Sequence record: NC_052663.1 | Origin: Escherichia phage VEcB | Strand: one strand, 5' to 3' | Length of the DNA: 64,000 bases | In this document: one piece after another, positions 21,967-64,000 of the stretch | How positions within the stretch are numbered: the stretch's first letter is position 1 | How the letters are laid out: every line of letters begins with the position of its first letter | Notes under the pieces: generated by a model | What the model saw: the letters and a program-made list of their open reading frames with translations, nothing else | Told to the model about the DNA's origin: nothing | Databases searched by the model: none | Made by a program: the position numbers and the translations under genes

Positions 21967-22058
21967 ACTTGCCTCCTATTTTGTTAAACGAACTTTTATT
22001 GTAACACAGAAGAGGCTGTTTTGCAAGTTGAGGGGGATTATCCCCCTCTTACACCCTG

Positions 22059-29283: not shown

Positions 29284-29360
29284 TCTTTTCTCCTCTTTAA
29301 TGCGGAGGACAATCCTCCGCTCTATGTCTTATACTATAAACTGTTTTTAAAGAAAGTCAA

Positions 29361-29609
29361 CTAGTTCAGTTCTGTAATTTTAAGTTTATCTTCTTTGTTA
29401 ATGATAGGGAAAGCTACAGCATCACCTACGTCATCAATAAAGCAAATAGCAAGACCACCTTCCACTTTGCTAATCTGACCATTAAAGGCGTGATACGGGG
29501 CAGGAACTTGATCTCCATCTTCAAGGAGAATAGCCTCGTAAACCTTGCCGATAGTACAATCACGAGTGTTTTTAAATTTTTCAAGCACTTCAACATTTAC
29601 TTTACGCAT
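29361..29609 (-). CDS. Hypothetical small protein
   Basis: ORF track. Confidence 0.3.
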   Translation of the reverse strand: MRKVNVEVLEKFKNTRDCTIGKVYEAILLEDGDQVPAPYHAFNGQISKVEGGLAICFIDDVGDAVAFPIINKEDKLKITELN

Positions 29610-52099: not shown

Positions 52100-52330
52100 C
52101 ATTTTTATAAAAAGGACAAAATTATTTAAAGTTTTTACAGATTTTTGGATACAAATTTTGAAAATGAAAAGTTCAAGTTTGGTCAAAATTATTTAAAGTT
52201 TTTGTATGTATTTCTATCCATATTTTGAAAATGAAAACTTCAATTTTTTAAAAATTCCCCAGTTTATTTAAAGTTTTTTTGCCTTTTTCCGTAGAAAAAT
52301 GAAAAATGAAAAGTTCAATTTCGTGTTTTT
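52100..52330. repeat. Three tandem ~65-70-bp direct repeats in an AT-rich non-coding region
   Basis: Each unit carries AAATTATTTAAAGTTTTT and TTTTGAAAATGAAAAGTTCAA; TTTTTATAAAAAGG also occurs twice upstream. Confidence 0.6.
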
Positions 52331-52455: not shown

Positions 52456-52714
52456 AGAATAACGCGCAGGGGTGGTGTTTGTCTCGCGCTCCCGTGTCCC
52501 CTCGCCATACAATAAGAATAGCATAACCAACAACAAAAGCAAGCGATTATTTTTATCTTTACATTTCTTTACAAATTTATTTTAGACGAGCTACCGGCGA
52601 TCAACCTTCCAACCAGTGCCCCCTGGTATGTTAGCCCCGCCTTTACGCCGTGGGGGTGGCGCTTCCTCTTCTGTATGTAAAACAGTATAAGCCCGATCCC
52701 TGGGCTTGTCAAGA

Positions 52715-53062
52715 TTATTTTTTGTTTTCTTGCCAGGATAGGACACCTAACCAAAAATACATGTCGCCCCGCGCCCCTGGTGGGATCTTGCTTTCCCCGC
52801 CGCCACTGCAAGCCCATAGATAACCATTTGCGAACGTATCAAAATGATCTATTTCTTCCACCTTATGATCGCCCAGGTTGAGAACGGTTTCAACCTTTAA
52901 GCCCGTTGCGCTTGCTACCTGGTGCACCGTGCCGCCTTGCCAGCCCAATGAGTGCATGAGGTGTAAAGTAGTATTTGTCATGGTATCGCCCTTTCTTTGA
53001 TGTGCGCCCTGGTTGGCGCGGTAGAAAGATAATAGCCCCTTTCCTTTATAGATAGCAAGCAA
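52715..53062 (-). CDS. Hypothetical protein inside a GC-rich island (true start possibly the internal Met MTNTT)
   Basis: ORF track; local GC clearly above the window average. Confidence 0.3.
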   Translation of the reverse strand: MLAIYKGKGLLSFYRANQGAHQRKGDTMTNTTLHLMHSLGWQGGTVHQVASATGLKVETVLNLGDHKVEEIDHFDTFANGYLWACSGGGESKIPPGARGDMYFWLGVLSWQENKK

Positions 53063-53248
53063 AAAAGAAATGAAAAAAGATTAAAAAAGGGGTTGACGTT
53101 CCTCACCTGGTAGCGTATTATTCATCTTGTCGAGGGGGGCGAGGCACAACGACAATAAACAAAAGGAGGGCGCAATGTAGGACGGGCAAAGGTGAGGATC
53201 TCCACAATCCACCGTCACAATAACATTACTTATAAAAGGTTGATAACG

Positions 53249-53344
53249 ATGGTCAAGAAAGAAAACAGCTTGACGGTTGGAACGATTAACGCTATCATTC
53301 TCGCCGTTCCATTTTGGATTGTAGTTGCGGTTATTATTTTCTAA
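53249..53344 (+). CDS. Small hydrophobic peptide (31 aa), not in the ORF track
   Basis: ATG downstream of TTGACG-N17-TATTAT promoter-like sequence; single TM-like helix. Confidence 0.25.
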   Translation: MVKKENSLTVGTINAIILAVPFWIVVAVIIF

Positions 53345-53353
53345 AAAATATTC

Positions 53354-53413
53354 TTGACAACGTTTTTTAATCTGATAAGATGTATCACATAGGGCGGGAA
53401 ATGGTTTCCCGCC
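53354..53413 (+). promoter_or_regulatory. Sigma70-type promoter (TTGACA ... TAAGAT) plus conserved leader hairpin GGCGGGAAA-TGG-TTTCCCGCC
   Basis: -35 TTGACA, 16-nt spacer, -10 TAAGAT; perfect 9-bp stem with 3-nt loop starting near the predicted +1. Confidence 0.6.
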
Positions 53414-53435
53414 AAATCAAAGAAAGGGTAATGCA

Positions 53436-53798
53436 ATGAGCAAGCAAATCAATACTATCATGTTAAACCTGGTATCTTTCCGCGACGACGTGAAAAATCT
53501 TCCACGTGATGCAGTGGATGCACGGATCGAAAGCTATCGCTCACAGATCGCAACGCTACCGCTAAAACGTGATCAACATGCCGCTAATATGATGCTTAAT
53601 GCTATGCTTAAAAAGATGATTCAATGTGATCTTACCCTGGCTTATGAATATGCTGGCGATCTCTTTGTAACATATAGCAAGCCCGTACCAGGTATGAGCA
53701 CAACCGAAGAATTGCATGCCTTAAATCTGCGACAAGATGCATGGGATAACATGCGCCGTGTTATGGTATGGGTAGAAAGCGGTAAAATTTACGAATAA
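53436..53798 (+). CDS. Hypothetical early protein
   Basis: ORF track; preceded by sigma70 promoter plus conserved leader hairpin. Confidence 0.5.
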   Translation: MSKQINTIMLNLVSFRDDVKNLPRDAVDARIESYRSQIATLPLKRDQHAANMMLNAMLKKMIQCDLTLAYEYAGDLFVTYSKPVPGMSTTEELHALNLRQDAWDNMRRVMVWVESGKIYE

Positions 53799-53804
53799 AA
53801 ACGG

Positions 53805-53856
53805 TTGACATTGCACTAAAACCTGATAAACTATCTTAAAGCGGGAATAGTTCCCG
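53805..53856 (+). promoter_or_regulatory. Sigma70-type promoter (TTGACA ... TAAACT) plus hairpin variant AGCGGGAA-TA-GTTCCCGCT
   Basis: Same architecture as 53354-53413. Confidence 0.5.
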
Positions 53857-53875
53857 CTTACATAGGATAAAACTT

Positions 53876-54023
53876 TATGAAACAATATGTAATGAGTATT
53901 CACACCAAAAACGGCGCTACTGTTACGACTCCGGCACGGTTTGCACTTGTAAACCGTTGCAAGAGACTAAAACGAGAGCTAAAAAACAACCGTGCAACGG
54001 GCTTTAAACGCTGGGGAGGATAA
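53876..54023 (+). CDS. Candidate mini-ORF region (two overlapping ~43-aa frames, one Cys-rich, one basic); which is translated is unresolved
   Basis: Follows promoter plus hairpin at 53805-53856; weak RBS. Confidence 0.2.
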
Positions 54024-54025
54024 TC

Positions 54026-54286
54026 TTGTTTTTTCTAAAAGTTTTTGATAATGTGATCGCTTTTGAACATGCTACAACGTTCGACCTGGCGAGATACGCT
54101 ATCAGGTTTAAAGATAATGTTTATCCCCGTGCTGGCGGCGGTTACACTATTTTTAATCATCGTAATTCCCAACTAACGGATATAACTAATCCAGATCCGG
54201 GCGTGTATCGCATAGGCTGGCTACCGTCAAAAGACGCGGCAAGCATGTTTAAGGTATGTAAACTACTAACAGAAGAGGCGAACTAA
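54026..54286 (+). CDS. Hypothetical early protein (TTG start)
   Basis: GGGGAGGA RBS 5 nt upstream of TTG. Confidence 0.4.
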   Translation: MFFLKVFDNVIAFEHATTFDLARYAIRFKDNVYPRAGGGYTIFNHRNSQLTDITNPDPGVYRIGWLPSKDAASMFKVCKLLTEEAN

Positions 54287-54287
54287 C

Positions 54288-54842
54288 ATGGGGCGTGAGT
54301 ATGTGATCCAGTCCTGGGTAAAGCATGACGCTAATGATCCGCGCATAATACCAGATGACATGATCGATCACATGGTAGGGTATAGCGGGGAGCAGATAGG
54401 AAATCGAGCGGCAAAGAGCAACGGCAACACAAAGGCGCGATCCGTTCGCCCTGGTTGGCTGGCAAATGGTAACGCTGACATTGCAAGCGCCGCAGATCCA
54501 AGCGATGACGCTAAAAATAATCCCTTATACAGTATTGATCCGGCTTTTAAGGTGTTGGAAGAGTATCCCGCTAAATTAGCCGCACTAGATAAAGCATACG
54601 AAGAAAAACGGGTGGCATGGACGGTATACAACACCGCTAAAATGGTGCTAGATGCAAAATTGATTAAAGCCCAGGAGAAGATCAATAAACTTGTTGCAGT
54701 AGCGCAAGAGGAAGACCAGGACGACCAGGAGGAAGAGGAAGAAATCATGCCTACCCTGGAAGAGGAAGAGATCCAGCCATACATGCCGACGGAAGAGGAA
54801 AAAAGACAAGCCCTAAAAAATTATGAAAATTGTATTGTGTAA
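54288..54842 (+). CDS. Hypothetical early protein with strongly acidic C-terminal tail
   Basis: C-terminal EEDQDDQEEEEEIMPTLEEEEIQ. Confidence 0.45.
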   Translation: MGREYVIQSWVKHDANDPRIIPDDMIDHMVGYSGEQIGNRAAKSNGNTKARSVRPGWLANGNADIASAADPSDDAKNNPLYSIDPAFKVLEEYPAKLAALDKAYEEKRVAWTVYNTAKMVLDAKLIKAQEKINKLVAVAQEEDQDDQEEEEEIMPTLEEEEIQPYMPTEEEKRQALKNYENCIV

Positions 54843-54845
54843 GGC

Positions 54846-54951
54846 TTGACATATGCAAACAAGCCCCGTAATATGTACCACATAAAGCGGGGCAACGCCC
54901 CATAAGGTGAAATAAAAAATCACTTGACACCTGAAATCAGTAAGCTATAAT
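54846..54951 (+). promoter_or_regulatory. Tandem promoters: TTGACA-N17-TAATAT with hairpin variant (GCGGGGC-AAC-GCCCC), then consensus TTGACA-N16-TATAAT
   Basis: Two consensus -35 hexamers 78 bp apart, both upstream of the 59-aa ORF at 54989. Confidence 0.55.
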
Positions 54952-54988
54952 GCTTATATAGATTGAAACATTACTAAGGAATAAAAGC

Positions 54989-55168
54989 ATGGCTATTATT
55001 GCAAAGACTGAGATCGTAGGTTTAGATTCTATCATCCTGGCATATGAGGAAGCTATAGAAATGTATGTGGTTTCCTATGGTGATTATATCCGTGAATATA
55101 AATCTATTGATCTAGCTTTTGAATGCTATATTCGCCAGGTCAATAAAGCCTATGATGATTATCGTTAA
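54989..55168 (+). CDS. Small early protein (59 aa), not in the ORF track
   Basis: ATG with AAGGA RBS; tandem promoters upstream. Confidence 0.4.
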   Translation: MAIIAKTEIVGLDSIILAYEEAIEMYVVSYGDYIREYKSIDLAFECYIRQVNKAYDDYR

Positions 55169-55187
55169 AAGTTTTAGTCTTGTGCTA

Positions 55188-55216
55188 TTGACAACGAACG
55201 ATAGTACAAGCATAAT
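55188..55216 (+). promoter_or_regulatory. Sigma70-type promoter (TTGACA-N17-CATAAT)
   Basis: Consensus -35; upstream of 55264..55629. Confidence 0.5.
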
Positions 55217-55263
55217 AACTTTTATCGGGAATACTCCTAACTAATCAAAAGAGATTAAAGACT

Positions 55264-55629
55264 ATGGCTAAAAATATCAATGTTTCTGCTTATGCTACCC
55301 TGGCTAACACTGCTAAAATTGAACTATCCAGCATTGAAGCGGTACATATTAGCGCCCGTCGCTGGTTTCAAAAGTCTTATGGTAACACTTATTTCTCTTT
55401 GATGGTTGACGTTGAGATCGGCGGTAAACTGATTGAAGTCGTTAACGTTCCGTTTCAATATGGCTACGGGGATCATTTTGATACCGTTGCCCTAGAAGAG
55501 TTTAGCAAGGTTATCAACCTGGAAGGTAAAGAATTTTCAAATTATGCCTACCTTTCCCGTTTTTGCCGTGACAATGGGATCACTGTATACAGTCATGCAA
55601 GCGATGTTAAACGTAAAAAAGATTTATAA
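55264..55629 (+). CDS. Hypothetical early protein
   Basis: ORF track; own promoter (TTGACA ... CATAAT). Confidence 0.45.
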   Translation: MAKNINVSAYATLANTAKIELSSIEAVHISARRWFQKSYGNTYFSLMVDVEIGGKLIEVVNVPFQYGYGDHFDTVALEEFSKVINLEGKEFSNYAYLSRFCRDNGITVYSHASDVKRKKDL

Positions 55630-55635
55630 AAAGCA

Positions 55636-55696
55636 TTGACAGCACGAATAAAAAGCATATAATACTTATATCGAGAGCGGGAATAGTTCCCGCCTC
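55636..55696 (+). promoter_or_regulatory. Consensus sigma70 promoter (TTGACA-N16-TATAAT) plus hairpin GAGCGGGAA-TA-GTTCCCGCCTC
   Basis: Perfect -35 and -10 hexamers; hairpin near +1. Confidence 0.6.
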
Positions 55697-55717
55697 ACTG
55701 AAAAAGAGATTAACATC

Positions 55718-55957
55718 ATGGCTAAATCTAAAATGTTCTTAGGTCACAAAAACAAAACTCATTGGAATGTAAGCCTTTGGATCAACAACGATGAAGGTTT
55801 TTATAATCTTGCGCGTGAATTTATCGCAGCTAACACCAATAAGAATGACGCAGCGCGTGATATGATGTTATTTCTTGAAAGTATGGATCAAGATAAAACG
55901 CCAGACGGTTACAAGTTCAGTAAAACCGCGATCCGTGCCGCTATGGTTGGAATGTAA
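55718..55957 (+). CDS. Hypothetical early protein
   Basis: ORF track; promoter TTGACA-N16-TATAAT plus hairpin upstream. Confidence 0.45.
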   Translation: MAKSKMFLGHKNKTHWNVSLWINNDEGFYNLAREFIAANTNKNDAARDMMLFLESMDQDKTPDGYKFSKTAIRAAMVGM

Positions 55958-56052
55958 AGGAGACATAAAAATGAAACATCGTTCGACCTATCTCACAAAA
56001 CGTTTTAGCTTAGATCATAAATTGGGCTATTACGGAAGAAATAGAAAATAAT

Positions 56053-56112
56053 TTGACAACGTTTTAAATTAGTGTAAGATATATCACATAGGGCGGGAAA
56101 TGGTTTCCCGCC
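56053..56112 (+). promoter_or_regulatory. Sigma70-type promoter plus canonical leader hairpin; near-identical copy of the 53354-53430 element
   Basis: About 45 bp (ATCACATAGGGCGGGAAATGGTTTCCCGCCAAATCAAAGAAAGG) identical to the leader of 53436..53798. Confidence 0.6.
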
Positions 56113-56134
56113 AAATCAAAGAAAGGTTATCATT

Positions 56135-56362
56135 ATGGCTATCGTTATTGTTCGCGTATCCGGTACGGTTGGAATCTCTCAGGTAGTAGCAGTTATCACA
56201 GAGAAGAAAGGGGATGATCTTCACTCCTCCTTGAATAGCTGGGCGGTCGCTAACTTTGGGCAATGGTCGAGCGTTGAGTACATCGAAGCCTACCAGGTGC
56301 CGACGATTAGCCTAACCGATCTAAATGTTGATCGCTTGTTGTGCCTGGATGGATTAAACTAA
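56135..56362 (+). CDS. Hypothetical early protein
   Basis: ORF track; promoter/leader nearly identical to that of 53436..53798. Confidence 0.45.
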   Translation: MAIVIVRVSGTVGISQVVAVITEKKGDDLHSSLNSWAVANFGQWSSVEYIEAYQVPTISLTDLNVDRLLCLDGLN

Positions 56363-56370
56363 AAATAATC

Positions 56371-56427
56371 TTGACAAGATAACTAAAATCAGTAAAATGT
56401 AATGCATAGGGCGGCAATAGTGCCGCT
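56371..56427 (+). promoter_or_regulatory. Sigma70-type promoter (TTGACA-N16-TAAAAT) plus hairpin GGGCGGCA-ATA-GTGCCGCTC
   Basis: Same architecture; hairpin variant shared with 60181-60237. Confidence 0.55.
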
Positions 56428-56449
56428 CATAGTAAGAGAGATTATCAAA

Positions 56450-56665
56450 ATGGCTAATATCCGCACACTGTTAAAAAATGCAAGTCAAGTTTTATTTTCA
56501 GATGACGAGTATTTCAACAAAGACATTACAGGCGTGAAAAATTTAAAAGACGTGAAGGATGTTATCGGTATCCGTGGATCTTTACGTAAAGGTGACATAT
56601 ACGGTAACAAGGTGCAATATAAACTGTCAAAAGATTATGATTTTACTTTGACATTTATTTCATAA
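56450..56665 (+). CDS. Hypothetical early protein (start at internal ATG after the leader hairpin)
   Basis: Track ORF N-terminus is the translated hairpin; ATG with AGAGAG RBS. Confidence 0.45.
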   Translation: MANIRTLLKNASQVLFSDDEYFNKDITGVKNLKDVKDVIGIRGSLRKGDIYGNKVQYKLSKDYDFTLTFIS

Positions 56666-56671
56666 AACCGC

Positions 56672-56732
56672 TTGCAATACTGCAAAAATAAAGTAAACTG
56701 TATTCATCAAGGCGGTGGAATAGCTCACCGCC
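56672..56732 (+). promoter_or_regulatory. Sigma70-type promoter (TTGCAA-N16-TAAACT) plus hairpin GGCGGTG-GAATAGCT-CACCGCC
   Basis: Same architecture with a divergent loop. Confidence 0.5.
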
Positions 56733-56756
56733 TAACAAAGAGAAGAGGAAAACATC

Positions 56757-56927
56757 ATGATCACTTTCGCCACCCGTGAAGCCGCTCGCAACGTTGCACG
56801 TAAAGTTAATGCCGCCAACCTGGGCGCTACGCTTAAAGCCCCGGTAAAAGATGAATCAGGAAAATGGATCTTCCCTGGTCTGCGTCACGCTGATAAGCTG
56901 GGAACATTAACGTTAAAAAATAAATAA
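56757..56927 (+). CDS. Small early protein (56 aa), not in the ORF track
   Basis: ATG with AAGAGGAAAA RBS; promoter plus hairpin upstream. Confidence 0.4.
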   Translation: MITFATREAARNVARKVNAANLGATLKAPVKDESGKWIFPGLRHADKLGTLTLKNK

Positions 56928-56934
56928 TATCCGC

Positions 56935-56993
56935 TTGACAGTAGCATGATTTATAAGTAAAGTAACAACAACGGCGGGAAATGGTTTCCCGCC
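56935..56993 (+). promoter_or_regulatory. Sigma70-type promoter (TTGACA-N17-TAAAGT) plus canonical hairpin GGCGGGAAA-TGG-TTTCCCGCC
   Basis: Canonical hairpin identical to the 53392 and 61294 copies. Confidence 0.55.
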
Positions 56994-57013
56994 ATCAATA
57001 AAGAGATAAGATT

Positions 57014-57373
57014 ATGAAATCAGCAAAAGCAATTAAAACTTACATTGTGTCGGCTATTTCTTTTGAAGGTACTACAACAGAAAAAGAAAAGATCACCGAA
57101 CTGATGCGCCGTTTTAACTCTGAATACTGGTATCCCGATAATCAAAAACGTTACAATTATAACGTGATCAAGGCGATAGCCTCATGGTTACAAGGTTTAC
57201 CGTCAGACATTAACATCGCCTTTGATTATAACGAGATTGATCATTTATTAATTGAATGGAAGTACATAAAAGAAACAAGCAAAGAAACAACCGTTACCCG
57301 TGAGCGGGAAAATTATTGGTTATATATTGCAAGCATGATCGTAATCCTGGCAAAACAGCATAACGTGGCGTAA
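57014..57373 (+). CDS. Hypothetical early protein
   Basis: ORF track; promoter plus canonical hairpin upstream. Confidence 0.45.
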   Translation: MKSAKAIKTYIVSAISFEGTTTEKEKITELMRRFNSEYWYPDNQKRYNYNVIKAIASWLQGLPSDINIAFDYNEIDHLLIEWKYIKETSKETTVTRERENYWLYIASMIVILAKQHNVA

Positions 57374-57388
57374 TTAAGAGGAAGAAAC

Positions 57389-57526
57389 ATGAACGCATCA
57401 CAGCAGATCGAAAAATTCAACCGCAGCAAGGCGCGTAAAGATTGGAACGAAGAGATCACCAAAAAAGGCGACAAGCGGAACAAAACAAAAAGAGATCGCA
57501 GCACAAAAAGATACTGGAACGAATAA
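57389..57526 (+). CDS. Small highly basic protein (45 aa), not in the ORF track
   Basis: ATG with AAGAGGAAG RBS; K/R-rich; immediately followed by a rho-independent terminator. Confidence 0.4.
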   Translation: MNASQQIEKFNRSKARKDWNEEITKKGDKRNKTKRDRSTKRYWNE

Positions 57527-57530
57527 CAAA

Positions 57531-57556
57531 AAAGGGCGCAATAAGCGCCCTTTTAG
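57531..57556 (+). terminator. Rho-independent terminator
   Basis: GGGCGC-AATAA-GCGCCC followed by TTTT. Confidence 0.6.
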
Positions 57557-57644
57557 CTTATATAGAGGCTTGTTACCCATAGGCAATGGTAACGCCAGGA
57601 TAAGCCTATAAACCACGTTAGACAGCTTTACAGGAGCTTTAAAA

Positions 57645-57827
57645 ATGAAATTAGACGAAATAAGCAAGGCACTAGCCCAGGGGCAAAGGTTATGCGCCCG
57701 ATATCGTGATCAATATGGCTTCATAACCAGCGGCGTGATCCTGGGGATTGAAGGCAATAAGATTTTTATTGACACGTTGAAAAACGTTGTATATAGTGAC
57801 AATATAATCTCAATAAAACATATATGA
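57645..57827 (+). CDS. Hypothetical small protein
   Basis: ORF track. Confidence 0.4.
   Translation: MKLDEISKALAQGQRLCARYRDQYGFITSGVILGIEGNKIFIDTLKNVVYSDNIISIKHI
57769..57797 (+). promoter_or_regulatory. Sigma70-type promoter (TTGACA-N17-TATAGT) embedded in the 3' end of ORF 57645..57827
   Basis: Consensus hexamers; drives the signal-peptide gene at 57836. Confidence 0.45.
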
Positions 57828-57835
57828 GGCAAGAA

Positions 57836-58237
57836 ATGAAAAAATTATTGATCGCTGGTTTAATCTCTTTTGGCATGGTTGGAACATCTAGCGCGGCGAT
57901 ATCCTCCACAGTAGCAGAATTAAGCGCCGTTGATGCAATGGAAAACGTCATGCTTATTAATAATGCGATCCCCGATGAAATCATGGAGGATTCACACATG
58001 ATCGCTTATGGTGCTGTTACACAACTAACGGCAAAAATAGATAAATCTATTGTTAACGGCTTAAATGAAGATGTGCCATGTGAAATTATTACCAGTGTGC
58101 TGACTACTCAAAATTTTACGCCGTGGTTAAAAAGTATTCAAAAAGTACACAGTACAGCCGCAGATCGTAGTAATGAAAAACTAGTGTCAGCACTTGCAAC
58201 GTATACCCTAGCAAAATGCACCGAGATAAAAGATTGA
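57836..58237 (+). CDS. Predicted secreted/periplasmic protein
   Basis: Signal peptide MKKLLIAGLISFGMVGTSSA; promoter TTGACA-N17-TATAGT inside the 3' end of the upstream ORF. Confidence 0.45.
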   Translation: MKKLLIAGLISFGMVGTSSAAISSTVAELSAVDAMENVMLINNAIPDEIMEDSHMIAYGAVTQLTAKIDKSIVNGLNEDVPCEIITSVLTTQNFTPWLKSIQKVHSTAADRSNEKLVSALATYTLAKCTEIKD

Positions 58238-58262
58238 CAACATAGAAAGCACGTTATAAGAT
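58234..58262 (+). promoter_or_regulatory. Sigma70-type promoter (TTGACA-N17-TAAGAT), no hairpin
   Basis: Consensus -35; upstream of 58285..58587. Confidence 0.5.
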
Positions 58263-58284
58263 ACACACAACAAAGGAGAACTAC

Positions 58285-58587
58285 ATGAACGGCATAGCTA
58301 AAACGTTTTTTCTTTTTTCTGGTGTAAATGATCCATCAATAAAAGTCGATAGTGTAAAAGAAAACAATACTATCACCGCTAAATTGTTTCAAGATGAAAC
58401 AAATAACGTGCTAATCATTAATCTTAAAGAAATAACGAAAGGTTATTATACTATTGCTTACCATGCAATCTATCATGCTGGTACTAGTGAGGAAGTGCAA
58501 ACAAGCAACAACGAAAGCGCGGCGCTACCTGGTGATCTGGTGCTGGGCGTTATCAGTTTAATTGTCAATGATTTTTTTAAGGAGTAA
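58285..58587 (+). CDS. Hypothetical protein
   Basis: ORF track; promoter TTGACA ... TAAGAT upstream; RBS AAAGGAG. Confidence 0.45.
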   Translation: MNGIAKTFFLFSGVNDPSIKVDSVKENNTITAKLFQDETNNVLIINLKEITKGYYTIAYHAIYHAGTSEEVQTSNNESAALPGDLVLGVISLIVNDFFKE

Positions 58588-58591
58588 AACC

Positions 58592-58687
58592 ATGCCCTAT
58601 TTACATTTATTTTTCGGGATCTTATTGTCAGGATCTTTTTTCTTCTGTATACTTGTTTCTATTGTAAACCACGTTTTAAGACATTAA
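58592..58687 (+). CDS. Small hydrophobic peptide (31 aa), not in the ORF track
   Basis: ATG 4 nt after the upstream stop; RBS AAGGAG embedded in the upstream gene end. Confidence 0.3.
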   Translation: MPYLHLFFGILLSGSFFFCILVSIVNHVLRH

Positions 58688-58696
58688 GGAAACAAC

Positions 58697-58816
58697 ATGA
58701 AAATTATTCCCGTACAGTATAGCGTAATAAATCCAGCATATGAGGAAGGAAGGAAAACAAGCATGGTTTTATGTTATATTGCTACTATAGCCATGTTGTT
58801 ATATATTGTGTTTTAA
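58697..58816 (+). CDS. Small peptide with C-terminal hydrophobic helix (39 aa), not in the ORF track
   Basis: ATG with AAGGAAAC RBS. Confidence 0.3.
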   Translation: MKIIPVQYSVINPAYEEGRKTSMVLCYIATIAMLLYIVF

Positions 58817-58845
58817 TAGGTTTTATAGTTGTACGCTTTAAAGGC

Positions 58846-58880
58846 TTGACAATTTTTTGTTATGCTTTAAACTATATCTT
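58846..58880 (+). promoter_or_regulatory. Sigma70-type promoter (TTGACA ... TAAACT)
   Basis: Consensus -35; upstream of 58917..59240. Confidence 0.45.
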
Positions 58881-58916
58881 GAAAACGGCAAAGGCCGCAA
58901 ACAAAAGGGTAAAATT

Positions 58917-59240
58917 ATGAAATCTGTGATCGGTGTTTATTTGGATAACTCTGATTTTTTCTATCATCGCGCTCGTTTCCTTGATGCGATTGAAATGATA
59001 GAATCAGGCTTTAAAGAGTATCGCCTTGCACATGATGACCTGGAAGCATTACAGGGCAATAGTGTTTTTACATTGCAAGCTAAAGCACTATGCAAAAGCC
59101 GAATCGACATTGCGAGCAAAAAGATAGAACGCGGCATGTCCTGGTTGCGCACCGCAGAAATCAACATGGGGCAATGGTACGGCGAAAACTTAGAAAATAA
59201 ACATGCTTTTGTCAATGTAGAAAATATTGAAGATTATTGA
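58917..59240 (+). CDS. Hypothetical early protein (start at internal ATG)
   Basis: Promoter TTGACA at ~58846; RBS AAAGGGTAAAA. Confidence 0.45.
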   Translation: MKSVIGVYLDNSDFFYHRARFLDAIEMIESGFKEYRLAHDDLEALQGNSVFTLQAKALCKSRIDIASKKIERGMSWLRTAEINMGQWYGENLENKHAFVNVENIEDY

Positions 59241-59302
59241 TTGACAGCACACTGAACGGGTAGTATATTGTATCTCATAGAGCGGGGAAATGGTTTCCCC
59301 GC
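59241..59302 (+). promoter_or_regulatory. Sigma70-type promoter (TTGACA-N17-TATATT) plus hairpin GCGGGGAAA-TGG-TTTCCCCGC
   Basis: Same architecture. Confidence 0.55.
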
Positions 59303-59322
59303 CTTAAAAGAAGAGATAAGCT

Positions 59323-59607
59323 ATGAAGATCACAAAAGCACTTTCCAACTATGCAGCACGTCGCGGCTTATGTTTAACCGTTGAAAACCTGGGGAAAGAA
59401 GATTTTTTGTGCTTTTGGGAGCTTGAGAATGATAATGAGTGGATCTTCTCTTATTCTATCTGCGAAGATCAAAACGGTTGTTTATTAACCTGGCGCGGTA
59501 ATATCTATCTACCGGAAGAAATCAAAGAAGAATTGCCAGGCACGATCATGACTGAGAAACAGCTTAAGGAAGTGATTAATTTTGTAGGGCAAAACATTAA
59601 AAAATAA
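59323..59607 (+). CDS. Hypothetical early protein
   Basis: ORF track; promoter plus hairpin upstream. Confidence 0.45.
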   Translation: MKITKALSNYAARRGLCLTVENLGKEDFLCFWELENDNEWIFSYSICEDQNGCLLTWRGNIYLPEEIKEELPGTIMTEKQLKEVINFVGQNIKK

Positions 59608-59608
59608 T

Positions 59609-59668
59609 TTGACACTAGGCAAACAACGTAGTAAAGTTTATCACATAGGGCGGGAAATGGTTTCCCGC
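59609..59668 (+). promoter_or_regulatory. Sigma70-type promoter (TTGACA-N17-TAAAGT) plus hairpin GGGCGGGAAA-TGG-TTTCCCGC
   Basis: Same architecture. Confidence 0.55.
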
Positions 59669-59691
59669 TCACAACAGAAGAGAAACACATC

Positions 59692-59862
59692 ATGATCCCG
59701 ACTATGTTTTACGTATCGCGCAAAGGTCACAATATTTTTTGGTCTGAAGATTTAAATGAAGCCATGACGTTTGCCCGTGATCGTGTTGCTATCGGTGGCG
59801 TTAACATTACTGTAACCGATGAAAACGGCATTGAATACTATAACGGCGACGATGAAGAGTAA
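59692..59862 (+). CDS. Small early protein (56 aa), not in the ORF track
   Basis: ATG with AGAAGAGAAA RBS after promoter plus hairpin. Confidence 0.4.
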   Translation: MIPTMFYVSRKGHNIFWSEDLNEAMTFARDRVAIGGVNITVTDENGIEYYNGDDEE

Positions 59863-59869
59863 TTAATAA

Positions 59870-59890
59870 GGCGGGGGAGTATTCCCCGCC
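59870..59890 (+). promoter_or_regulatory. Leader-type hairpin (GGCGGGGGA-GTA-TTCCCCGCC) without an adjacent consensus promoter
   Basis: Occurs between a stop codon and the RBS of 59910..60179. Confidence 0.4.
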
Positions 59891-59909
59891 GTCAATAAAG
59901 AGGTAAATC

Positions 59910-60179
59910 ATGAAAATATCTTTGGACGTTGCAATCAAGGCCATCGAATCCGGTTACACCCTGGTTAAAGATGATAAGGCTAAAACCGTGCACCACGTTA
60001 ACAAGGAAACAGGCGAAAGCATGATCACATATAAAGCCGCCTACTTTCTCCAATCAGTAGCAGATCCGCGCGTACAACGCCAGGTTACGGCGGCTATTGC
60101 TAAAAAATTATGTGCTTTACAGGGTATAAGTTTTAACGAGATCGCCCCGTGTTTTGACTGGTCGAGCTTGAAAAAATAG
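59910..60179 (+). CDS. Hypothetical early protein
   Basis: ORF track; preceded by a leader-type hairpin without an obvious promoter. Confidence 0.45.
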   Translation: MKISLDVAIKAIESGYTLVKDDKAKTVHHVNKETGESMITYKAAYFLQSVADPRVQRQVTAAIAKKLCALQGISFNEIAPCFDWSSLKK

Positions 60180-60180
60180 T

Positions 60181-60237
60181 TTGACAACAATTATAAATCG
60201 GGTAGAATGTATTTCGTAGGGCGGCAATAGTGCCGCT
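60181..60237 (+). promoter_or_regulatory. Sigma70-type promoter (TTGACA-N16-TAGAAT) plus hairpin GGGCGGCA-ATA-GTGCCGCTC
   Basis: Hairpin identical to the 56408-56427 copy. Confidence 0.55.
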
Positions 60238-60259
60238 CATAACTAAAAGAGAAATCAGC

Positions 60260-60454
60260 ATGGCGCTTAAAAAACTAACAAGCAATACTCGTTGGGATGA
60301 AATCGACGGAGAAGTTTACATTTTCGCCCGTAAACCAGGTGATCAAAAATGGTCAAAGGCTTTTACTTGCCACCCTGCAACAATAGATCTAATAAAAAGT
60401 AAAGGTTTACGTGAAGCGGTAGCAAGAAGTTTACTGATCCCTTATAAAAAATAG
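60260..60454 (+). CDS. Hypothetical small protein (start at internal ATG)
   Basis: Promoter TTGACA-N16-TAGAAT plus hairpin upstream. Confidence 0.4.
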   Translation: MALKKLTSNTRWDEIDGEVYIFARKPGDQKWSKAFTCHPATIDLIKSKGLREAVARSLLIPYKK

Positions 60455-60455
60455 T

Positions 60456-60517
60456 TTGACAATACGCGGTTATCTGGTAAAGTGTACGACATAGGGCGGG
60501 GCAATAAGGCAACGCCC
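60456..60517 (+). promoter_or_regulatory. Sigma70-type promoter (TTGACA-N16-TAAAGT) plus degenerate GC-rich hairpin
   Basis: Same architecture. Confidence 0.45.
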
Positions 60518-60535
60518 ATTAATGAGGGTAGAATC

Positions 60536-60640
60536 ATGTTAGAGAAAATTTTCACGGTTGTAGTAGTTGGCCTGGCGTTATCGGTTGGATTGGTTGCAAC
60601 TATGGCTAACATGATCCTATCTTCCCACGGTATTGGATAA
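60536..60640 (+). CDS. Small hydrophobic peptide (34 aa), not in the ORF track
   Basis: ATG with GAGGG RBS; single TM-like helix. Confidence 0.3.
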   Translation: MLEKIFTVVVVGLALSVGLVATMANMILSSHGIG

Positions 60641-60650
60641 GGTGAATCAA

Positions 60651-60866
60651 ATGATCACGAATAAGACAGGTAAAACAGAATTTTTACGCGGCTTGCAAAT
60701 AGGTAAGCCTGAGATCTGGCATTGCACTAAATCCGCGCATAATGAAATGAAAGATTTTACCGCTACTTTACAACGTGTTAAAATATCTATCACACAGAAA
60801 AAAGCCTTGTTAGTAGTAGAAAACGAGATACCGCAAACCATTATTATTGTCGAGCGTACAGCATGA
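60651..60866 (+). CDS. Hypothetical small protein (start at internal ATG)
   Basis: RBS AAGGTGA. Confidence 0.4.
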   Translation: MITNKTGKTEFLRGLQIGKPEIWHCTKSAHNEMKDFTATLQRVKISITQKKALLVVENEIPQTIIIVERTA

Positions 60867-61249
60867 AAACAGAAATCATTATTGAAATCATCAACGGTTA
60901 TAAAGAAGCCTTTATTTTTGCTGAATCAGCCAGGGATCATGAAGGTAATTTTATTGATAACTTAGACGATTATGATTTTTCAGATCAAGCCCACCAGCGG
61001 ATCATTCATGACGTAGCGGCTTATTGTGATGCCAATGATGCTGCTATCTCTGAGGCAATGAGCGACGGCGCAACAGCAAACCAGATCGGGAATGATTTAC
61101 ATTTTACCCGTAACGGTCACGGCGTAGGCTTTTGGGATCGCCCTGAAATATACACTACTAACACCGCCAACCGCCTAACAAATGCAGCTAAATTAATGCC
61201 ATCGGTGCATGCTTACATTGGTGAAGATAATTTGATTTATATCGAATAA
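60863..61249 (+). CDS. Hypothetical acidic protein
   Basis: ORF track; overlapping stop/start; D/E-rich. Confidence 0.4.
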   Translation: MKTEIIIEIINGYKEAFIFAESARDHEGNFIDNLDDYDFSDQAHQRIIHDVAAYCDANDAAISEAMSDGATANQIGNDLHFTRNGHGVGFWDRPEIYTTNTANRLTNAAKLMPSVHAYIGEDNLIYIE

Positions 61250-61255
61250 AAAGTA

Positions 61256-61314
61256 TTGACACCGATCCCCAATATGGTATTATTTACCACGTAGGCGGGA
61301 AATGGTTTCCCGCC
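61256..61314 (+). promoter_or_regulatory. Sigma70-type promoter (TTGACA-N16-TATTAT) plus canonical hairpin
   Basis: Canonical GGCGGGAAA-TGG-TTTCCCGCC. Confidence 0.6.
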
Positions 61315-61337
61315 AGGTAATCAAAAAGGTAAATACT

Positions 61338-61727
61338 ATGCGCAACCTGGTTTCTGTTTCTAACGTTGAAAAATTTCAATCTTTACAGGGTATCGTTAAC
61401 AACGTAGCGCCTTTTTTAGTCAACGGCTTGATTGCAAAGATGAAAAATAAACATCATGCGGCATGGTCTGCTTACTGCTTTGATAATGATGAAAAAGCGG
61501 CTGAAATGATGTTAAATATGCTGTTAGACAGTGTAGAATCATCTTTACCGGAAAACATCGCAGAAGAGATCACCTATCGTTATAATATGGCGATCACTTA
61601 CCAGGAGGTTGCGCAATTTAATATGATGGACGATGACGAACAACAGGATCAGGAAATGTTTTGGGAGTATGCAGATCGTCAATCGGCTTTTGATGAAAAG
61701 TTAGCAATGTATTATAACGAATATTAA
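61338..61727 (+). CDS. Hypothetical acidic protein (start at internal ATG after the leader hairpin)
   Basis: Promoter TTGACA-N16-TATTAT plus canonical hairpin; acidic tract MMDDDEQQDQEMFWEY; terminator downstream. Confidence 0.45.
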   Translation: MRNLVSVSNVEKFQSLQGIVNNVAPFLVNGLIAKMKNKHHAAWSAYCFDNDEKAAEMMLNMLLDSVESSLPENIAEEITYRYNMAITYQEVAQFNMMDDDEQQDQEMFWEYADRQSAFDEKLAMYYNEY

Positions 61728-61740
61728 TACACGGTAAAAG

Positions 61741-61770
61741 AAAGGGGCGCACTAAGCGCCCTTTTTTTTT
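61741..61770 (+). terminator. Rho-independent terminator
   Basis: GGGGCGC-ACTAA-GCGCCC followed by a T9 run. Confidence 0.7.
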
Positions 61771-62115
61771 GTATTCTTTTTTCACGATGGAAGTAACACG
61801 TAAAGAATAGGCGTAAAGGTGGCGTAAAACAGCCTAAAACCGATTATAACCGCTTAAACAAGGTAGGAATGATTAATCACCTTACCAGGATGAAAAAGCT
61901 GTTATAAAGCTATCTAGGGCGTTTAAAGAACATAGGAAATAATTTGCTTTTTATCTTGCCTTTTATCCTGCTTTTGATTATTATTATGGAACGGGCGGCA
62001 CCTGGGGACAGGGGAAGATAATCACCGGAAGATCCCGCTATATATTGATAGCTAACATCTATCAAACAACAAAACATCAAAGGAATAAACTATCAAATCT
62101 TTACAATCTTATCTA

Positions 62116-62144
62116 TTGACCGATAAATCATAACCGTTTAATAT
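62116..62144 (+). promoter_or_regulatory. Sigma70-type promoter (TTGACC-N17-TAATAT)
   Basis: Near-consensus hexamers upstream of 62193..62429. Confidence 0.45.
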
Positions 62145-62192
62145 TGTTTTTAGAGGGTAGAACATACCCAAAACGAAAACAGGAAAAAGAAA

Positions 62193-62429
62193 ATGAAAGA
62201 AGTCATGATCCTCAAAAAATCACCTATTTTACGTGGTGGCTTTATCGCTTACTCTGATGATCTGTTAATTGCAACGGTTGCAAAAATACTAAAATCAGAA
62301 GAGGATAGTAAAAACGGCGTTTATCGTATCTGTTTCACCCGTGGGAAATTGCAAGGCAAGATCGCCTATGCTTTTGATTTACAAGATGTAAATGATAAAA
62401 TCTGCGCTGTTATTGATTATGCAAAATAA
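62193..62429 (+). CDS. Hypothetical small protein
   Basis: Promoter TTGACC-N17-TAATAT upstream. Confidence 0.4.
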   Translation: MKEVMILKKSPILRGGFIAYSDDLLIATVAKILKSEEDSKNGVYRICFTRGKLQGKIAYAFDLQDVNDKICAVIDYAK

Positions 62430-62441
62430 TTAACTTTCTTA

Positions 62442-62470
62442 TTGACACCGGATCACGCTTACATTATTAT
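62442..62470 (+). promoter_or_regulatory. Sigma70-type promoter (TTGACA-N17-TATTAT) with degenerate leader (CACGTAGGGCAAATCATTTT)
   Basis: Consensus -35; leader keeps the CAC-TAGGGC start but lost the stem. Confidence 0.5.
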
Positions 62471-62516
62471 TTATCACGTAGGGCAAATCATTTTAAACGG
62501 TAAACGAGGAATCACC

Positions 62517-62900
62517 ATGAGCAATATCATCAACCTGGCGGCTACTGTAAACGGTAAAGACTTTAACGGCGCTGTAGATCGTGATCCTATGTGGTGCTTG
62601 TCAGTATTTAAAGGTGATTTAGTTGAAGTTAGAACAACCGAAGGGTATAGCGATGATTATAAATGCGAGATCCATTTACATAACTGGTACACGGGTAAAA
62701 CTTATGCGCTGAATCACGCGTTTATCGGGAAAATTGAATATCGTGAGATGATCGACGAAGAAACGGGGCAAGATTTTAGCCAGCATGTTTATATTCGTTC
62801 CGAAACATTAGCCGAACGTTTGATCGAGAAAATGAAAGCAAAAAATAAAATTAATTTATCTCATTGGATTGATATAACAAACGATCCTGCTTATCAGTAA
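62517..62900 (+). CDS. Hypothetical protein (start at internal ATG)
   Basis: Promoter TTGACA-N17-TATTAT upstream; terminator downstream. Confidence 0.45.
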   Translation: MSNIINLAATVNGKDFNGAVDRDPMWCLSVFKGDLVEVRTTEGYSDDYKCEIHLHNWYTGKTYALNHAFIGKIEYREMIDEETGQDFSQHVYIRSETLAERLIEKMKAKNKINLSHWIDITNDPAYQ

Positions 62901-62912
62901 ATAACATTTCAT

Positions 62913-62945
62913 ACCAGGGCGCACAAAGCGCCCTTTCTTTTTACC
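62913..62945 (+). terminator. Rho-independent terminator closing the small-gene array
   Basis: AGGGCGC-ACAAA-GCGCCCT followed by TTCTTTTT. Confidence 0.6.
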
Positions 62946-63149
62946 TAAATAAAGATGATAGCTTTTACCTATCAAAAACGTTCACCGAAAAAAGTGAATA
63001 GATCGCGGTATCGAGCTAATCAAGGAGCAGATGAATAACCATACCATGAAGATCATAAGGCGTTTACAACGTGTTTTAGACCGCTTGTTTTTAATTTCTT
63101 CATGCAACTATCTGGCAAAAACAGCCTTTTTCTTGTCTTTCCTCTTAAA

Positions 63150-63222
63150 TAATAATCATTCTCATTTATAGCTGATTATTTATGCAATAAACTGAATAAT
63201 GTAATAATGATAATCATTCTTA
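63150..63222. promoter_or_regulatory. Two further Fur-box-like palindromes
   Basis: AATAATCATTCTCATT at ~63151 and TAATAATGATAATCATTCT at ~63202 (16/19 to the Fur-box consensus, core AATGATAATCATT exact). Confidence 0.45.
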
Positions 63223-64000
63223 ACTTAAGGCCATCTAACCTATAAAATAATAAGCTATCTAACTAAATTAAAGCTAATTATCTCACCTTTATTTATAACT
63301 TACTGTTACTATCTCATTGATAACCTTATATTAAACAACAATAACTAATATAAATCATTACCAAGCTAAATATAATCTATCTAACCTTTAAAACTATAAC
63401 TATAATCTATTGAATTATTGCACAAAGTAACTATTAAATCGTTAGTAACATTACTAAATAATTCATATCCTATCTATTTATGATCTAACCTTTACCTTCT
63501 TATCTATTACCTAAGTAATCATTTCATACAATAACTATAACAAGAAATATAATTCGCAAGCGTATCATTAGCAGCCTATGCCGGACACATAGGCGGCTAA
63601 TAATAACGCAACTACACACCCCACATAATAACCATCACCGATAGTTATTATTTGTGCTTATGTAGCTTGCAACAATTGCAAGCGCAACAATATACATGGT
63701 ATATTGTATTCCCTTACATTGTTGCGGTGCGTTATTATTAGCTAATGTTTAGAACATTGGCTATAATATAAGCTATCCAATAATAAACATAATGAATAAT
63801 GATACTGAAATGAATAATGACACTGATGATCATAATGCGCCACCTTCCAGGGGGCGCTATGTGAACACAAAGAAATCTTTCTTGTCAAGAAAAATATTAC
63901 CACTATTGCGCAAAATTATTTTTATCTGAATAGATGATTTTTCATACTATTGCCCCCTTGATTATTACTATTTGTTGAGTATAGTTATCCCTATTTGTTG

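Follow-up and report, generated by a model that had tools for sequence, protein, structure and literature searches.

Promoter-early stem-loop (PeSL) elements have been described in the T4-like phages RB49/phi1, PST/T4 and nt-1/KVP40 (Arbiol et al. 2010, PMC2839356; Comeau et al. 2014, PMC4122927). They are composed of an AT-rich tract holding a stop codon, a near-consensus sigma70 promoter, a stable GC stem-loop, a Shine-Dalgarno sequence (SD) and an ATG. The same parts in the same order are found in Escherichia phage VEcB (NC_052663.1), of which a stretch of 64,000 nucleotides, here called the window, was analysed; they make up an array of small genes with promoters and leader hairpins at positions 53350-62945. 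As with PeSL elements, the cassettes of this array are densely packed, flank ORFans in a variable region and lie at the junctions of indels and replacements, and one of them is chimeric. Of the five PeSL subclasses in the literature, one has its stem-loop downstream of the -10 (PMC2839356). The differences concern the usual position of the stem-loop, given below, the host phage, which belongs to the Stephanstirmvirinae and not to the Straboviridae, and the stems, which are of the GGCGGGAAA type here and not of the form Gn-loop-Cn. The array is clearly non-random and matches the known PeSL kind rather than a new kind.

Promoter arrays have also been reported in the Vequintavirinae. The Certrevirus phages CB7, CR3, CR8 and CR9 carry arrays of sigma70-like early promoters with UP elements (Buttimer et al. 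2020, PMC7344957), and 33 promoters are listed for rV5 (PMC3606486). The gathering of consensus host-type promoters in a block of short hypothetical open reading frames (ORFs) is common to these phages and VEcB, but the Certrevirus and rV5 papers mention promoters only and no stem-loop, cassette or recombination role (PMC7344957, PMC3606486). A full-text literature search for "PeSL" returned papers on T4-like phages only, and the design, known in that group, is apparently new for the phage group of VEcB.

Our reading of the array has three joint components, and we give their combination a probability of roughly 55%. The array would consist of about 20 copies of a PeSL-type early expression cassette, each filling the gap between a stop codon and the next start, with all promoters probably fired by unmodified host RNA polymerase immediately after infection. 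The stem-loop would act in RNA as a transcript-boundary element: since it begins 3-5 nt past the predicted +1, it would be a 5'-proximal structure in its own message, and it would be an intergenic structure in read-through messages. Such an element would hinder 5'-end-dependent decay, block 3' exonucleases and/or attenuate read-through, leaving the ribosome site open. The cassettes, as repeats of 80-95 bp, would serve as crossover points for gene gain, loss and swap. That the elements are cassettes of PeSL type has good support; the RNA role of the stem-loop and the part played by the cassettes in gene gain and loss we infer from the features described below.

The window belongs to the genus Justusliebigvirus; it is from a phi92-like coliphage, whose variable block of early genes makes up the region. 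Along its whole length the region has 97% identity with Escherichia phage alia, and it is common to 284 phage records, including other Justusliebigvirus (phi92-like myoviruses, Stephanstirmvirinae). Twenty-nine plus-strand genes of 26-184 amino acids are present, 19 of them with a promoter directly upstream; the original prediction, made from the sequence alone, had spoken of about 25 small genes, most with their own promoter, and this description holds. In annotated relatives the same region likewise contains small plus-strand genes only, all labelled hypothetical, and the remainder of the window is occupied by larger genes, mostly on the opposite strand. The original prediction had seen in the products putative host-takeover and anti-defence proteins. 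The ten largest proteins were scanned and all ten fall into PHROG families of unknown function; for these ten, Pfam and PHROGs gave no functional assignment beyond DUF7249 and Phage_30_8. Gene content varies between close relatives, as in the hyperplastic regions where PeSL elements flank ORFans.

Promoters were called strict when they had an exact TTGACA, a spacer of 16-18 nt and a TAnnnT -10 matching at least 4 of 6 positions. The plus strand of 53350-62945 contains 18 such sites, compared to a mean of 0.30 (standard deviation 0.55, maximum 3) in 1000 dinucleotide-preserving shuffles, which bears out the extreme density first claimed for this region. The plus strand of the other 54 kb of the window has only 3. 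Exact TTGACA occurs 19 times in the region where 3.0 are expected. The addition of two weaker promoters (TTGCAA at 56672 and TTGACC at 62116) brings the total to 20, all pointing in the direction of the genes, nearly all intergenic, and two of them with the perfect sigma70 consensus (12/12 matches).

The surroundings of the promoters are also repeated. The sequence upstream of the -35 is rich in A: its consensus is AAAAAATART, and at -49 to -40 A makes up a fraction of 0.54, versus 0.34 in the background. This tract holds the stop codon of the upstream gene, which in 13 of the 20 cassettes lies 0-9 nt before the -35. The conserved ATCACATAG comes after the -10. From -35 to ATG the distance is 79-85 nt in single-promoter hairpin cassettes and 51-77 nt in hairpin-less ones. 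The repeats are whole cassettes: over 77 nt, those with promoters at 53354 and 56053 have 88% identity. At the predicted start (53386-53392 and equivalents), CACATAG or CATAG is kept as a motif in at least six genera, even in cassettes without a leader hairpin such as ggcggCATAGgtaagag in SSBI34, which suggests constraint on the initiating sequence itself.

Thirteen of the promoters are followed by a GC stem-loop (Table 1), and a fourteenth stem-loop, conserved in relatives, is found without a promoter at 59870-59890. The prediction of a repeated GC inverted repeat just past the transcription start is thereby confirmed, and all the variants quoted for it are present; the loop of the second was off by one base and the hairpin is really GGGCGGCA-ATAG-TGCCGCTC, with a 4-nt loop. 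Regular copies have a stem of 5-10 bp and a loop of 3-6 nt. The hairpins start 6-14 nt past the -10 (mode 10-12) and end 17-24 nt before the ATG. As RNA they have a predicted stability of about -15 to -17 kcal/mol (z-scores between -1.9 and -4.1 in leaders of 62 nt), and in these predicted leaders the hairpin is isolated and both SD and ATG are unpaired. The A-rich linker between hairpin and ATG, which contains the SD (AAAGAG/AAGG-type), is likewise predicted to be unstructured. The predicted +1 is the CA of CACATAG, 6-8 nt past the -10. An Rfam 15 scan of 52500-64000 with E up to 1 yielded only four matches, which were at chance level and fell well short of the gathering score.

Constraint on the cassettes was measured by comparing orthologous copies of seven close relatives, each with the window, anchored on 90 nt of the downstream gene. 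The -35 showed no differences (0/264), the stems 14 in 757 positions (1.8%), the loops 5.3% and the promoter spacer 6.6%; in the coding sequence, first and second codon positions differed at 1.3-1.4% and third positions at 6.8%. Divergence of the stems is lower than that of spacer or third codon positions by a factor of about 3.7 (stems versus spacer plus third positions, Fisher P = 3e-8, on data that are not phylogenetically independent). Over longer distances, the cassette upstream of the conserved gene 61338 is traceable into Av-05, PVP-SE1, GAP31 and KP13-26 (44-71% protein identity). Promoter, hairpin and SD are kept in all these orthologous cassettes, which come from five genera, and the stems differ by changes on both sides (GGCGGGAAA/TTTCCCGCC, GACGGGGAG/TTCCCCGTC, GCCGGGGAA/TTCCCCGGC). 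In an ungapped seed alignment of 18 copies of equal geometry, 96% of cells are paired, versus 39-63% in slid controls, and 6 of the 9 seed pairs have both-sided changes; this comparison is partly circular because the copies were picked for forming hairpins. A covariance model built from the seed found matches in the early regions of relatives only and, in the window, one complete cassette on the minus strand at 29284-29365, so that the design occurs outside the ORFan array as well. Selection for structure over sequence, which had been proposed from covariation in the stems, is supported by the both-sided changes among orthologs, the pairing of the seed and the slow divergence of the stems. As judged from these sequence comparisons, the stem-loop is a selected structure.

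The way in which the stems vary also bears on the proposal of an operator in double-stranded DNA, lying at about +5 to +25, at which a dimeric phage repressor would shut off the early promoters. The palindrome does overlap the start region of many co-regulated promoters, with a GCGG...CCGC core common to the copies, but the arms differ within one phage (GGCGGGAAA, GGGCGGCA, GGCGGTGG, GCGGGGAAA, GCGGAGGA) and the spacing between the common cores is 12 nt in some and 15 nt in others. Loops and stems are of unequal length, no promoter goes with one of the copies and seven promoters have no repeat. In Certrevirus the palindromes occupy the promoter spacer, a classical operator position; the both-sided changes, however, preserve pairing and not sequence. 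With half-sites and spacing that vary within the phage and changes that are compensatory, the dimeric repressor of the original prediction is not borne out, and we regard it as highly improbable.

The position of the stem-loop relative to the promoter was classified in all loci, in the window for 21 promoters. Ten of these 21 have a stem-loop downstream of the -10 and none has one inside or upstream of the promoter. The stem-loop is also always downstream of the -10 in other Justusliebigvirus (31/67) and in Vequintavirus (4/16), and mostly so in Phapecoctavirus (14/27), where single copies are upstream of the -35 or overlap the -35 or the -10. In Certrevirus KaOmega it is mostly between -35 and -10 (12/24), and some Certrevirus cassettes have a spacer stem-loop and a leader stem-loop together. 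Among 94 promoter-like sites of RB49, it is between -35 and -10 in 10, over the -10 in 12 and downstream in 4. The "upstream of -35" PeSL subclass is found in VEcB itself, where a GC hairpin on the minus strand (22030-22048, GAGGGGGA-TTA-TCCCCCTC) comes right after a stop codon and directly upstream of a TTGCAA-17-TACAAT promoter.

RB49 and Certrevirus-type cassettes also have sequence motifs in common. TGTTGAC is present in 14/25 promoters of RB49, 6/21 of KaOmega and 16/28 of SSBI34, AAACGA in the leader of 11/25, 5/21 and 6/28 respectively (background about 0.03), and CACATA after the -10 is common to both types; the lineage of the window is without this set of TGTTGAC, CACATA and AAACGA motifs. 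The sharing may reflect either exchange of cassettes across families or convergence. Together with the fixed leader position in three genera, it is the basis on which we offer a wider idea, a speculative one to which we give little credence: a single family of mobile regulatory promoter-stem-loop modules would extend across virulent enterobacterial myoviruses that are otherwise unrelated, namely the Krischvirus of the Straboviridae, the Vequintavirinae and the Stephanstirmvirinae, with a stem-loop free in position that moved into the leader in the Stephanstirmvirinae of E. coli and, with CACATAG, could mark early mRNAs for privileged survival. If this is true, privileged survival could mean, for example, resistance to the phage-accelerated decay of host mRNA.

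Comparison with six close relatives shows where the array has been rearranged. Homology breaks fall inside cassettes at 53368-53400, 55658-55672, 56390-56414, 56687-56692, 60474-60500 (an insertion junction in two relatives), 61306, 62120 and 62440-62468. Ten of 14 junctions are in cassettes, which cover 13.9% of the region (P about 2e-6 against the whole region). In phages muut and KKE7M the gene 56450-56665 is replaced, with junctions inside its own cassette and the next. Paula, alia, KKE7M and KKP_3264 have an extra gene (phi92 gp226-like) between two cassettes; at 53354 a single chimeric cassette joins the promoter that the first of these has in Paula to the hairpin of the next, with a crossover in the 5' arm and the intervening gene gone.

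Several observations weigh against our reading of the array and its stem-loops. Cassettes make up about 60% of the intergenic DNA and the junctions are not enriched beyond "intergenic", so that they are only consistent with cassette-mediated exchange and do not prove it. Seven of the 20 promoters have no hairpin. The mean folding energy of 218 unique promoter-downstream segments is -9.0 in sense and -9.3 in antisense orientation, compared to -4.7 for shuffled sequence, and the counts of wobble pairs conflict: G.T exceeds A.C/C.A by 34 to 11 on the model-fitted alignment and falls behind by 3 to 9 among internal mismatches with a strand-symmetric finder. In Certrevirus and RB49 the stem-loop is in between -35 and -10, or else around the -10, inside the promoter, and thus cannot be in that promoter's own transcript. 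The literature searched holds no usable transcriptome or start-site data for Justusliebigvirus, Phapecoctavirus or Vequintavirinae, and the +1 is for this reason only predicted. Finally, templated mutation at the DNA level or swapping of whole hairpins can keep palindromes perfect and so mimic compensatory evolution.

This last point belongs to an explanation in which the palindrome works as DNA. A recombination-prone, single-stranded hairpin would spread the cassettes, and templated quasi-palindrome mutation or exchange of the whole hairpin, in place of selection on RNA, would keep restoring its perfect pairing. The crossover of the chimeric cassette in a 5' arm agrees with this, as do the junctions at 56390-56414, 60474-60500 and 61306, which touch hairpins, the RB49 junctions mapped within the loop (PMC2839356), the free position of the stem-loop across lineages and the lack of a sense-strand bias in energy (the 218 segments) or in wobble pairs (the strand-symmetric finder). 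Among close relatives, however, the stems are as conserved as first and second codon positions, and a hairpin persists at one orthologous site in genera whose proteins are about 50% identical, which points to a direct benefit and not to second-order evolvability. Short GC stems with 3-nt loops are also not known to extrude as cruciforms from duplex DNA. We therefore consider this explanation unlikely.

For an action in RNA, one model is given by the 5' stem-loop stabilisers of the ompA and papA leaders (Emory, Bouvet and Belasco 1992, cited in PMC3997798), in which, as here, a stable hairpin near the 5' end is followed by an unstructured ribosome-binding region. A role of the hairpin as 5' stabiliser is plausible. 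The strict form of this idea, suggested in the original prediction, is a 5'-terminal stabiliser of the ompA type with no role in read-through transcripts. The hairpins begin near the predicted +1, 6-14 nt past the -10, they are stable and isolated in the predicted leader, and the arrangement is kept in Justusliebigvirus, Phapecoctavirus and Vequintavirus. The ompA and papA stabilisers, however, need the hairpin essentially at the terminus, with about 0-4 unpaired nt before it, and the 3-5 unpaired nt predicted here, not 0-2, are borderline for a 5'-terminal protective hairpin; the work of Emory and colleagues is reported to place an overhang of this length at the limit of protection. Stem-loops not at the very 5' end are readily passed by RNase E (PMC9943677), which tells against both the strict form and the boundary element. 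The conserved promoter-less copy and the related phages with a stem-loop upstream of +1 do not fit a strictly terminal function either, which we think improbable.

The T7 early-gene hairpins cleaved by RNase III are likewise intergenic RNA structures that part early messages. RNase III needs roughly two helical turns. Processing by this enzyme, also raised in the original prediction, is unlikely because the stems in VEcB have only 7-10 bp. N4-type hairpin promoters for a virion RNA polymerase were rejected on the ground that the hairpins lie downstream of complete sigma70 promoters; a second ground, drawn from the related Certrevirus CB7 and not from the genome of VEcB, is that CB7 was reported to be without an RNA polymerase gene (PMC7344957).

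The GC-rich intergenic stem-loops resemble intrinsic terminators, which unlike them have a U-tract on the gene strand. No U-tract follows the leader hairpins on the plus strand, their 3' flanks are A-rich and none was called a plus-strand terminator; the region has three real terminators with T runs (57530, 61745 and 62916), which are a hairpin family other than the leader hairpins and split the array into three blocks. Intrinsic termination by the leader hairpins was rejected on this ground. In the record of phage Paula several leader hairpins are annotated as "terminator" on the strand opposite to every gene, and a terminator scan of the window does likewise; such calls arise because the A-rich upstream flank of the sense strand reads as a T run in reverse, and the array has no minus-strand genes that antisense terminators could serve, so that these were rejected as well. 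The original PeSL proposal was that the hairpin acts only on transcripts arriving from upstream, as terminator or attenuator, and stops transcription from piling up along the array; no function in the cassette's own transcript would be required. This would account for a stem-loop that can take any place from the stop codon to the next SD (within the promoter of Certrevirus and RB49 cassettes, past it in those of VEcB) and for the conserved promoter-less hairpin at 59870; the A/T-rich sequence after the hairpins is in line with it, and a PeSL stem-loop reduced the expression of a downstream lacZ to about the same degree as did rrnB T1 (PMC2839356). On the other hand, the leader hairpins are without a U-tract in a phage that has canonical hairpin-plus-T-run terminators at block ends, and an efficient terminator 5-25 nt past +1 would also kill the output of its own promoter. 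Attenuation as the sole function is thus rather doubtful in our view; in the boundary element that we favour it could be one of several effects.

Table 1. Cassettes, promoters, hairpins and terminators of the VEcB early array, with one cassette outside it
Feature	Position	Strand	Parts	Gene(s) driven
Cassette 1	53342-53435	+	UP-like tract, promoter 53354-53381 (TTGACA-16-TAAGAT), CACATAG, hairpin, SD	53436-53798
Hairpin of cassette 1	53393-53413	+	GGCGGGAAA-TGG-TTTCCCGCC	
Cassette 2	53793-53876	+	promoter 53805-53832, hairpin 53839-53859 (AAGCGGGAA-TAG-TTCCCGCTT)	53877-54023
Genes co-transcribed after 53877-54023	54026-54286, 54288-54842	+		
Tandem promoters	54846-54951	+	first promoter 54846-54874 with short hairpin 54889-54901 (GGGGC-AAC-GCCCC); drives 54989-55168 together with the second promoter	
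Second tandem promoter	54924-54951	+	perfect consensus, without hairpin	54989-55168
Promoter without cassette hairpin	55188-55216	+		55264-55629
Cassette	55624-55717	+	perfect-consensus promoter 55636-55663	55718-55957, 55973-56051
Hairpin of cassette 55624-55717	55677-55693	+	GCGGGAA-TAG-TTCCCGC, extendable to 55673-55696	
Cassette	56041-56134	+	promoter 56053-56080, hairpin 56092-56112	56135-56362
Cassette	56359-56449	+	promoter 56371-56398, hairpin 56409-56428 (GGGCGGCA-ATAG-TGCCGCTC)	56450-56665
Cassette	56660-56756	+	weaker promoter TTGCAA at 56672, hairpin 56711-56732	56757-56927
Hairpin of cassette 56660-56756	56711-56732	+	GGCGGTGG-AATAGC-TCACCGCC, 8 pairs, 6-nt loop; innermost pair G.T wobble, G-C in relatives	
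Cassette	56923-57013	+	promoter 56935-56963, hairpin 56973-56993	57014-57373, 57389-57526
Intrinsic terminator	57530-57558	+	GGGCGC-loop-GCGCCC, then T run; ends first transcription block	
Hairpin-less promoter	57769-57797	+		57836-58237
Hairpin-less promoter	58234-58262	+		58285-58587
Small membrane-like ORFs after 58285-58587	58592-58687, 58697-58816	+		
Promoter with weak downstream hairpin only	58846-58873	+		58917-59240
Cassette	59229-59322	+	promoter 59241-59269, hairpin 59282-59302 (GCGGGGAAA-TGG-TTTCCCCGC)	59323-59607
Cassette	59597-59691	+	promoter 59609-59637, hairpin 59648-59670	59692-59862
Stand-alone hairpin	59870-59890	+	GGCGGGGGA-GTA-TTCCCCGCC; no promoter; 8 nt past stop codon, 19 nt before ATG of 59910-60179	
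Cassette	60169-60259	+	promoter 60181-60208, hairpin 60219-60238	60260-60454
Cassette	60444-60535	+	promoter 60456-60483, imperfect hairpin 60494-60517	60536-60640, 60651-60866, 60863-61249
Cassette	61244-61337	+	promoter 61256-61283, hairpin 61294-61314	61338-61727
Intrinsic terminator	61745-61772	+	GGGGCGC-ACTAA-GCGCCCT, then T9	
Promoter	62116-62144	+	TTGACC	62193-62429 (replaced in several relatives)
Promoter	62442-62470	+	degenerate hairpin remnant (CACGTAGGGCAAATC)	62517-62900 (Pfam Phage_30_8)
Intrinsic terminator	62916-62942	+	ends array	
Cassette outside the array	29284-29365	-	TTGACT-17-TAGTAT, CATAG, hairpin 29320-29302 (GCGGAGGA-TTG-TCCTCCGC), SD	29283-28318 (321 aa)

Some further features of the array and its borders were noted. 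The tandem promoters at 54846-54951 are 78 nt apart with no gene between them, an arrangement that relatives keep; they may be left over from a gene cassette since lost. Five early genes (54989, 55264, 55718, 56135 and 56450) begin with ATGGCTA (Met-Ala-Ile/Lys/Asn), and the junction of a 269-bp deletion by which muut and AMO3598 have lost gene 54989-55168 falls exactly within the ATGGCTA common to two adjacent genes. Between the upstream gene block and the array is a 67-bp tandem repeat (52117-52247, 2 copies, 82% matches), annotated as repeat_region in alia and muut, with divergent promoters just 3' of it at 52712 (-), 53093 (+) and 53270 (+). After the last terminator, 62950-64000 is gene-free and AT-rich (33% GC), has several inverted repeats as well as direct repeats that are short and ATCTAACCTWTAAAA-like, and runs beyond the end of the window; its counterparts are an unannotated gap of about 1.8 kb in alia and, probably, the "non-coding" box drawn for rV5. 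It may be an origin or have a part in packaging or regulation.

Two groups of database records (MG065645, MG065689, MG065639, MG065656, MG065650; MT119359) deserve mention. Several records named "Campylobacter phage" are about 95% identical to the region, a match that suggests mislabelled hosts or contamination. In the record of "Enterococcus phage heks" (39.7 kb), 73 nt match cassette 1 and the start of its gene at 89%.

The findings extend the PeSL design past the T4-like phages, to the Stephanstirmvirinae and the Vequintavirinae. Leader hairpins of this kind are at present ignored in public records or, as in Paula, annotated as terminators on the wrong strand, and recognition of the cassette corrects the annotation of several hundred genomes of coliphages that are therapeutic candidates. 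The array contains 13 natural variants of a single hairpin in a constant position, and its hairpin-less promoters and its promoter-less hairpin can serve as internal controls; with these it could settle the role of the PeSL stem-loop, a question dating from 2010. As a practical by-product, the cassettes may provide very strong, compact and insulated expression units, to go by their sequence. For the biology of these phages, the cassette may be a general solution to the expression and shuffling of accessory early genes, the pool that is usually searched for anti-defence and host-takeover functions.

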